Source: Escherichia coli
GTDB lineage: Bacteria > Pseudomonadota > Gammaproteobacteria > Enterobacterales > Enterobacteriaceae
NCBI RefSeq assembly: GCF_016026235.1
Contig: NZ_CP065613.1
Length of the DNA: 64,000 nt
Direction: 5' to 3' (one strand)
Position numbers: made by a program. Within the stretch, counting starts at the first letter, position 1; every line of letters begins with the position of its first letter. Shown piece by piece: positions 36,001 through 39,000 of the stretch.

Positions 36001-39000
36001 TTCCTGCATAGATTTAACCGGCCATCTGAGATGGCCGACAGGTTAACATAATTACAGCCATTTAGGGCCACGCGCTCAGCCCGCAGGTGAAAACGCATCT
36101 ATCACCTTGTGATCGACACCTTCATTCTCCCCCGCCAGTTCGGCACTGAGCTTCGCCATAAACTCGACTAAAAATTGCGCGTTGTGCTGCGCCAGCTGCT
36201 TGCCTCTTACGGTTTGCATGGTTTGCGGTAGCTTCAGCAACTTAGTCTGGAAATGATCCAGCGCGTAGCGTTTATCATCAAGCGGGCGATACTGTGCGAA
36301 CGGATCTTCGCCATCAAACAGCGCCACGCCCAATGCCCCTGAAACGGCAAACACGCGCGCCAGGCCAATCGCCCCCAGGGCTTCCAGCCGATCCGCATCC
36401 TGGACGATTTTAGCTTCCGTTGTTAAGGGGGCGATTTGCGCGCTGAAACTGTGAGCGGCAATGGCATGACAAACGGCCTCGATTTTCTCCGCCGGAAATT
36501 GCTCGAACTCTTCACGGAGCAGGCGACGCGTCTCTTCTGCCGCCAGGATTGAAGAACGCTGCCGTTGCGGATGATTTTTCGCCAGGCTCACAATATCGTG
36601 GAAATAACAGGCGGTTAAAATCACCAGCATATCGACGTCATCATCTGCCGCCAGCTTCTGTGCCGTAGCCCAGACGCGGCGAAAATGATACACGTCATGG
36701 GCCGCGTCCTGGTGCTGATGATGGTTTTTCAACCAGTTTTCGAACTGTGTCTGCCAGTGTTGTAAGTCCATACGCGCTCCGTTGCCAAAGAGTCGCCACC
36801 TTAGCAGTTTTTATTCATAGCGTCTGCTACGTGCGGGACGAGGTCGGGTGTACCAGGCAATGCTGCCTAACAATGCCCCGACCAGAGCCATAAATAAAAA
36901 TCCGACCAGTGCCCCTAACCACTTTCCCGCGGTAGAGCCTAAATCGCTTTCAAATCCCGACACGGGGGCATCGGGGATCCGGCTCATCACCCAGATGTAA
37001 CGCGCCATTGCCCAGACGAAATAGCCACACCATGTATAGAAAGCTCACAAAGCCAGTTTGCCACCAGGGCTGCGAGAGAGCCTCTCTTCCATCTTTGTCG
37101 AACCGTATTCCATTTTGAGATAACCCGGAAAATTCAGACTTAGTACTATTATGTGATAAAAGTCACATTTTTCCACATTGAATGAGCCAGTCAAGACTCA
37201 ATCATTTTTTGAACAAATAGATAAATTTTGCGCAACGGCAGTGAATACAGGAAAAATCGTTTTGAGCGATTTTATTTATCTTTGATATCGGCTTTATTAA
37301 TTCATTTAATCAATATATTAGCACTGAATACAATTATACCTTTTTATTTTTCTGTGTCATGATGCCTCCGTTATTAGCCTTTTATCGTCTTGTTTATATT
37401 TTTTGGGCCGGCATGATGCCGGCTTTTTTATGCCTTCATTAATGTGCGCGTGATCACACCAGCCGTTTAGCGCATCAATCATTGATACCCCCTATCTTTC
37501 CGCTAAACTCATAATATATTGATATGAATTGATAATTTTCATGAATACTTATGTTTAGAATTCATAATTCTGAATTATATTAAATATATTAGAAACATTT
37601 TGAAATCTTTTAAATATATTTGTTACATGTAATCTTTAAAATAAAATGAACTTCATAGAATAGTATCCAAATGTGCTTTTTTTGGATAACGGCACTTATT
37701 GATATATTCATGAAGATTATAATCACAAGGGAATACATAATGAAAAGAAAAGTTCTGGCAATGCTGGTCTCGGCGTTATTAGTTGCTGGCGCAGCAAATG
37801 CGGCTGAAATTTATAATAAAGATGGCAATAAACTGGATCTGTACGGCAAGATGGTTGGTGAGCGCATTCTGACCGACCGTGAAAATGGTGAAAAAGGCGA
37901 TAATTCTCAAGATACCTCTTATGCCCGTGTAGGCGTGAAAGGTGAAACTCAGATCAACCCTGAATTGACTGGTTACGGTCAGTTTGAACTAGACCTGGAA
38001 GCATCAAACAGACACAACCCTGACCAAACTCGTTTGGCTTATGCTGGTTTGAGTTACAAAGATTTTGGTTCATTCGACTATGGTCGTAATGTCGGTGTCG
38101 CGTATGATGCAGAAGCATTTACTGATATGTTTGTTGAGTGGGGCGGTGATTCATGGGCTGGTACTGACCTGTTCATGACCAACCGTACCAACGGTGTTGC
38201 AACCTATCGTAACACAGATTTCTTTGGCATGGTTGAAGGTCTAAATTTTGCTCTGCAATATCAGGGTAAAAATGAAGGTACAGGCAACTACAAAGCAAAT
38301 GGCGATGGCCATGGTTTATCTGTAACTTACACTATTGACGGTTTCTCATTTACTGGTGCTTACGCAAACTCTGACCGTACTGATTTCCAGTCTAGTGATA
38401 GTAAAGGTGAAAAAGCAGAAGTTTGGGCACTGTCAACAAAATATGATCCCAACAACGTCTATGCTGCTGTGATGTACGGTGAATCTCACAACATGAATTC
38501 CGACGACGGTGATGTTGTGAACAAAACACAAAACTTCGAAGCTGTTCTGCAATATCAGTTCGACTTCGGTCTGCGTCCATCCATCGGTTACTCCTATTCT
38601 AAAGCACTGGACGTAGCAGGTTACAAAGATTCTGATCGTCTGAACTACATTGAAATCGGTACCTGGTATTACTTCAATAAGAACATGAACGTATATACCG
38701 CTTATCAGATCAACCTGCTTGATAAGAGTGATTATGTTCTCGCTCATGGACTGAACACCGACGACCAACTCGCATTTGGTATCGTCTACCAGTTCTAATC
38801 AGCCAACGCGCCGCGGCGTGTTACTGTAAAACATAACACTAGCCTGAGTTCGTCCCTCATCGAACTCAGGCTTTTTTATTGGCATTTCATCTCCATCTGC
38901 GGCACACGCAATTGCCAAAGCATATCGATACAGCACCTTACCCTGCCCCTCCTGGCACAATATCTCTACCAGCTACTCTTCCAGCCAACACTCCAAATAC

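Follow-up and report, generated by a model that had tools for sequence, protein, structure and literature searches.

The closest described counterpart of the gene considered here is DrpB (formerly YedR) of Escherichia coli K-12, a non-essential and poorly conserved division protein that is of low abundance and localises only faintly to the septum (PMC7648144). Its reported phenotypes comprise this septal localisation, multicopy suppression of an ftsEX deletion and a synthetic defect with a dedD deletion, and its two helices adopt a conserved N-in/C-in topology (PMC7648144); roles have been demonstrated for residue R38, the periplasmic loop 48-57 and T89 (PMC11709261). DrpB is an inner-membrane protein of 100 residues with two transmembrane (TM) helices that helps assemble the division ring and that, when overproduced, activates the Rcs envelope-stress phosphorelay. 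Translation starts mainly from an ATG that was once annotated as codon 22, giving 100 amino acids (aa), the K-12 promoter lies between the old GTG start and this ATG, and rescue of the ftsEX deletion was lost, even from a plasmid, when stops were introduced at old codons 23 and 30 (Yahashiri et al. 2020, PMC7648144). A literature search for natural yedR/drpB pseudogene alleles returned nothing relevant beyond the two papers on DrpB cited above (PMC7648144, PMC11709261). Here we examine the drpB copy in a 64,000-nucleotide stretch of E. coli contig NZ_CP065613.1 (assembly GCF_016026235.1), called the window throughout, in which the gene is interrupted by a premature TGA.

The gene in the window is that of K-12 in its usual position, with yedJ on one side and rseX/porin on the other. 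The two copies differ by four bases in the 303-nucleotide (nt) frame, and unlike K-12 the window encodes no full-length two-helix protein. Its copy is an ordinary pseudogene allele of a characterised gene and is already annotated as such in RefSeq. With a probability of roughly 0.85, we read it as a loss-of-function (null or near-null) allele of single origin that spread with its haplotype and was inherited by the Shigella/enteroinvasive E. coli (EIEC)-type lineage to which the window belongs.

Translation of the minus strand gives a frame of 121 codons plus a terminal stop at 36811-37176, interrupted only once, by a stop at codon 44 (KLAL*AFYTW), exactly where a previous sequence-only reading of this DNA had seen it. 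The same reading took 121 codons to be the length of YedR, which reflects an outdated annotation: the real protein has 100 aa (PMC7648144), so that the drpB pseudogene proper occupies 36811..37113 (minus strand; 100 codons plus TAA) from the experimentally mapped ATG at 37111-37113, or old codon 22, and the TGA at 37045-37047 (minus strand) falls at real codon 23. The former codons 1 to 21 (37114..37176, minus strand, with the old GTG at 37174-37176) are not main coding sequence and hold the region in which the K-12 promoter was mapped; across this GTG-to-ATG stretch the window and K-12 show no differences. The automated NCBI pipeline (PGAP) uses yet another start, old ATG-29 (37090-37092, 93 aa), in disagreement with the experimental old ATG-22 (37111-37113, 100 aa; PMC7648144).

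Alignment to K-12 MG1655 bore out the suspected TGG-to-TGA change. A single G-to-A transition (coding-strand sense; window position 37045) converts Trp23 to a stop; the only other differences within the 121-codon frame are three synonymous single-nucleotide polymorphisms (SNPs). When the Trp is restored, the translation matches the NCBIfam equivalog model NF038392 (div_DrpB_YedR; curated cutoff, 50 bits) at 151.6 bits, with residues 9-93 covering positions 1-85 of the 86-position model, and a Pfam search of DrpB returned no family match. Intact TGG orthologues are known, and what sets the window copy apart from them is a point change to a stop codon, as in a pseudogene formed by nonsense mutation. 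PGAP labels the gene an "internal stop" pseudogene in all 12 of the TGA-carrying genomes that were inspected.

The position of the stop relative to the membrane segments suggests a severe effect. Hydropathy of the Trp-restored protein places hydrophobic segments at approximately residues 20-43 and 64-86, and codon 23 therefore lies at the entry to TM helix 1. Translation from the native ATG would end after 22 cytoplasmic residues, ahead of both membrane helices, and the residual 22-codon open reading frame (ORF) MEYGSTKMEERLSRSPGGKLAL (37048..37113, minus strand) is the sole product expected from that start. This peptide stops short of TM helix 1 and has no NCBIfam match on its own; the sequence as it stands, 22 residues and then a stop, does not qualify as a two-helix DrpB. 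R38, loop 48-57 and T89 all lie 3' of the TGA, which supports loss of function, and we infer that no functional DrpB is made from the window allele. Downstream, as the sequence-only reading had stated, only the distal 65 codons survive as an ORF in this frame (36811..37008, minus strand; real residues 36-100).

The distribution of the allele was surveyed in 5,426 complete E. coli genomes, a collection that lies apart from Shigella genomes. The drpB locus is present in 4,910 of them. A 31-mer spanning the TGA occurs in 248 of the 5,426 (~5%), and the corresponding TGG 31-mer in at least 2,366; the remaining genomes differ by SNPs nearby. The 248 carriers are of animal (dogs, cats, pigs, poultry and cattle), environmental (sewage, river water, seawater and marine sediment), food and human origin, and carbapenem-resistant isolates occur among them. 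Over 551 bp, the window matches E. coli 266917_2 at 100% identity, and the drpB of that genome is flagged by PGAP for an internal stop; the drpB sequence is likewise identical in avian pathogenic E. coli (APEC) E12053, in E110019, in ST648 and in other non-invasive strains. The RefSeq "internal stop" pseudogenes (e.g., 266917_2, ST648, ST540, E110019, APEC E12053 and FDAARGOS_943) show an allele indistinguishable from that of the window, with the difference that the window's sublineage adds lesions in yedA and hprS (see below). The presence of the TGA in the non-invasive APEC E12053, E110019 and ST648 indicates that the mutation predates the pathotype.

The carriers also share the surroundings of the mutation. 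One and the same 57-mer is common to all 248, and in 11 carriers whose loci were fetched we found 0 to 6 differences over an upstream block of ~5 kb, insertion sequence (IS) elements aside. This shared block comprises hprS, hchA, a 352-aa porin allele, the rseX intergenic region and the first 69 nt of drpB. Intact drpB alleles, compared with the block, differ at 17 to 34 of 640 intergenic sites, and most of them accompany a porin that is ~25% divergent; among the fetched TGA carriers with an uninterrupted porin, the protein is mostly WP_000824345.1. The simplest reading is that the mutation arose once, on one haplotype, which afterwards spread between lineages.

Recombination appears to have contributed to this spread. 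In four carriers, namely "042" (Switzerland), UK_Dog_Liverpool, ST540 and CFIAFB20180511, the haplotype gives way to a very different one inside drpB, ~70 to 110 nt past the TGA, and beyond the switch the same four show 13 differences in 234 sites in the rest of drpB and 55 in 737 in yedJ; the switch is a recombination breakpoint within the gene. (The genome labelled "042", NZ_CP042934.2, equals UK_Dog_Liverpool at this locus and was not counted as the enteroaggregative E. coli reference strain 042.) A per-kb difference profile against the avian strain APEC E12053 further delineated a block of near identity at ~27000..46500, with ~9 differences in 19 kb, that contains the TGA. Its flanks at 4 to 23 kb (the fli/amyA/yedE region) are 2.5 to 7% divergent from APEC E12053, and the fliC/fliD region at ~8 to 10 kb is 18 to 25% divergent; the window genome is a mosaic. 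We propose that the TGG-to-TGA change would have arisen once in E. coli on an hprS-hchA-porin-rseX-drpB haplotype, that this haplotype would then have reached a variety of lineages, some of them at least through recombination, and that the Shigella/EIEC-type lineage of the window would have inherited it. In these terms the W23-stop is standing variation in a dispensable gene and not a lesion that results from host restriction.

Two descriptions of complete linkage were tried and discarded. The TGA and the 352-aa porin type do not always go together: this porin type is found in ~1,849 genomes, and drpB is intact in close relatives (e.g., NIPH17_0036 and SY3626). Nor is the TGA fully linked to a distinctive intergenic variant: the corresponding 46-mer occurs in 348 genomes, including the TGG carriers O157:H7 TR01 and A30.

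Several points weigh against the reading of a dispensable gene inactivated once and then dispersed. First, the phylogroups of the carriers were taken from strain names and sequence types and not from a whole-genome tree. Second, intact drpB alleles carry an excess of synonymous changes (25 synonymous to 2 missense in all): among 10 alignable alleles, real codons 1-35 have 3 synonymous and 0 missense changes, and codons 36-100 have 22 and 2, respectively. The gene is hence normally under purifying selection, and its complete loss may cost fitness in some settings. Third, the carriers show no extra lesions past the stop, yet with only 0 to 6 differences per ~5 kb they are too alike to reveal decay. 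Finally, UGA is the leakiest of the stop codons, and its reading by the near-cognate tRNA-Trp would restore the wild-type residue.

This last point leads to the alternative that survives best, although it is an unlikely one: that occasional reading of the UGA by tRNA-Trp yields a low level of wild-type DrpB, making the allele a strong hypomorph rather than a null. Of the stop codons of E. coli, UGA is read through most readily, with tRNA-Trp as the near-cognate reader, and UGA followed by G, as in the window, is a relatively weak termination context. The ancestral residue is itself Trp, so that readthrough would give the authentic protein, and neither the promoter nor the start region differs from that of K-12. 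Nevertheless, typical UGA readthrough with wild-type RF2 is ~1% or less. We detected no hairpin 3' of the UGA that could stimulate it, a 73-nt fold having a z score of +0.93, no better than shuffled sequences, and DrpB is a low-abundance protein even when intact (PMC7648144).

A different account was offered by the sequence-only reading, which counted the stop together with the disrupted yedK, yedA and ipaH and found the four in keeping with reductive evolution in a host-restricted pathogen. Part of this is sound. The window is from an ipaH-carrying Shigella/EIEC-type lineage, as its sequence matches indicate: its ipaH segment matches EIEC strains (e.g., CFSAN029787), it shares 13.3 kb at 100% identity with contig UGFA01000005.1 of GCA_900449985.1, and it is nearly identical over 28 kb to its clonal relative FDAARGOS_943, which carries ipaHe and IS1 insertions in fliR. 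The companion lesions are real too. In yedA (33231-34151, plus strand), a C-to-T change at 33243 turns codon 5 from CAG into TAG (stop at 33243-33245); the ipaHe-like gene for an E3-ligase effector (47902-49543, plus strand; 1642 nt) needs at least two frame changes to be read through, and PGAP flags the 99.7%-identical CFSAN029787 copy as "frameshifted"; and the yedK ORF (14731-15333, plus strand; 200 aa) is truncated at its C terminus, its match to the 214-position SRAP model being confined to positions 1-183. To these we add hprS (yedV; 40349-41641, minus strand), in which 66 nt have been lost in frame between direct repeats of 9 nt (TTAACCGGA), with the junction near 41437; the loss removes approximately codons 69-91 and leaves 430 aa versus 452. 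This deletion is also found in several NCBI assemblies of the window's lineage.

The lesions in yedA and hprS are missing from the closest relatives. Neither is present in FDAARGOS_943 or APEC E12053, and yedA is intact in other relatives as well; both are therefore specific to the window's sublineage. In contrast, the drpB TGA is present in both strains. As the clonal relative FDAARGOS_943 has the TGA with an intact yedA and hprS, the TGA is older than the lineage-specific lesions, and the non-invasive APEC E12053 matches the window at 100% across drpB and almost completely over ~19 kb. Far from being confined to an invasive, host-restricted lineage, as a loss specific to Shigella/EIEC would be, the lesion occurs in 248 genomes from animals, water, food and humans, with one haplotype in the 11 fetched carriers. 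Descent of the 248 carriers from an invasive ancestor, which alone would revive the proposal, is at odds with their hosts and strain names. The avian strain APEC E12053 already has the TGA, and non-invasive strains (O157:H7 and APEC37) have lost drpB independently. The window resembles the known cases of reductive or pathoadaptive loss in Shigella (e.g., cadA, ompT and flagellar genes) in being ipaH positive and in having lineage-specific disrupted genes; it differs in that its drpB lesion is not lineage specific and predates the pathotype, and in that the flagellar genes checked (fliZ, fliA, fliC to fliT and fliE to fliR; 5204-27375) are all intact, with a FliC of 558 aa. We therefore regard reductive evolution as a very unlikely origin of this stop, and return to inheritance of an older, dispersed haplotype as the favoured one.

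Still less probable is re-initiation at the ATG at 37006-37008, 12 codons past the stop, to give a functional protein of 65 aa. The restart codon is just 36 nt beyond the stop, and the ORF that it opens is intact, keeps both T89 and TM helix 2, and reaches 92 bits with the DrpB model. That match, however, covers model positions 28-85 only, and the product is without most of TM helix 1, so that the N-in/C-in two-helix topology would be impossible. There is no Shine-Dalgarno sequence before the ORF (the upstream context is gtctgggca-ATG), PGAP does not call it as a gene, and no rescue was obtained with the engineered stops (old codons 23 and 30), even when plasmid borne, so that this ATG provided no function in that assay (PMC7648144). 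A related scenario, in which the reference protein simply starts at this Met, had been named by the sequence-only reading as one that would overturn it, together with a lack of conservation in the upstream frame. Both fail: translation starts upstream of the 65-aa ORF (PMC7648144), and the upstream frame is conserved, with synonymous-only variation in codons 1-35 and an NF038392 match that spans residues 9-93. On the same three grounds, the mapped start, the variation and the span of the model, the 65-aa ORF was rejected as a true gene.

Programmed recoding or an assembly error has a negligible probability: although selenocysteine is encoded by TGA, the codon here was ancestrally TGG, neither Cys nor selenocysteine, and no hairpin follows the UGA, and the occurrence of the allele in 248 independent complete genomes and in independent assemblies (two such NCBI assemblies with the TGA are 99.99 to 100% identical to the window over 13.3 kb) rules out a sequencing error.

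The W23-stop has counterparts elsewhere in the species. In O157:H7, contraction of a G4 run to G3 at codon 67/68 causes a frameshift that is found in 297 genomes (e.g., strain F6294; locus L012, 4959-5239), and in APEC37 an 8-nt deletion (locus L033, 1934-2228) splits the gene, for which PGAP annotates two short "DrpB" proteins of 42 and 72 aa. Like the window allele, these are natural and independent inactivations of drpB; they differ in mutation, position and haplotype, and they truncate the protein after TM helix 1 rather than before it. O157:H7 strain TR01 departs from this pattern: its drpB is intact and its haplotype is close to that of the TGA carriers. In MLI104K2, only the yedJ end of the query was matched. 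Taken together, the two common null alleles (248 W23-stop and 297 O157:H7 frameshift) account for 545 of the 4,910 locus-bearing genomes, or at least ~11%, and the independent losses in O157:H7 and APEC37 indicate that drpB is dispensable in nature, in agreement with the account of DrpB as non-essential and poorly conserved (PMC7648144).

A further step, which we consider rather unlikely, would be that certain niches favour the loss of drpB or at any rate have tolerated it more than once. The W23-stop, which moves in a horizontally exchanged block with a distinctive porin allele and a porin-promoter variant, could hitch-hike on selection for that surface protein, or it could itself be selected, e.g., by lowering DrpB-dependent Rcs signalling. 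If this were true, drpB would, given also the fixed frameshift of O157:H7 and other deletions, be a gene that natural E. coli inactivate convergently and repeatedly, despite the purifying selection on its intact alleles.

The remaining features of the neighbourhood are as follows. The order yedJ, drpB, rseX and yedS-type porin matches that of K-12 and of more than 20 other E. coli loci. The yedJ gene (36076-36771) adjoins drpB on the same strand, with drpB upstream, and the divergent neighbour of drpB is the gene for the Hfq-binding small RNA rseX (37341..37430, plus strand; Rfam RF01401, 96.9 bits, E = 1.8e-13). The 352-aa porin that forms part of the TGA-carrying haplotype block (37740..38798, plus strand) is intact in the window at the position of yedS, a pseudogene in K-12; porin alleles at this position fall into classes that are ~25% divergent. 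Upstream of the porin, at 37431-37739, the TGA haplotype is ~17 sites away from sampled intact-drpB haplotypes whose porins are 99.3 to 99.4% identical. Farther out, a TTG at 33276 could restart yedA to give a 291-aa product, the ipaHe-like gene lies in a prophage remnant and adjoins a methyltransferase gene (46918-47586), the yedK gene of APEC E12053 is also partial through a different lesion, and an intact flagellar region such as that of the window points to EIEC more typically than to classical Shigella.

At the level of the population, the finding is of mild interest, as a nonsense allele at ~5% that has spread on a recombining block beside a variable porin. It also bears on how such windows are read: disrupted genes in a stretch of pathogen DNA are no evidence of reductive evolution unless each lesion proves to be lineage specific, and here the lesion in drpB is inherited while those in the nearby yedA and hprS are specific to the lineage. 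For the biology of the gene itself, natural drpB mutants matter when the K-12 results on DrpB, its redundancy with DedD and its activation of Rcs are extrapolated to O157:H7 or to carbapenem-resistant carriers of the allele.

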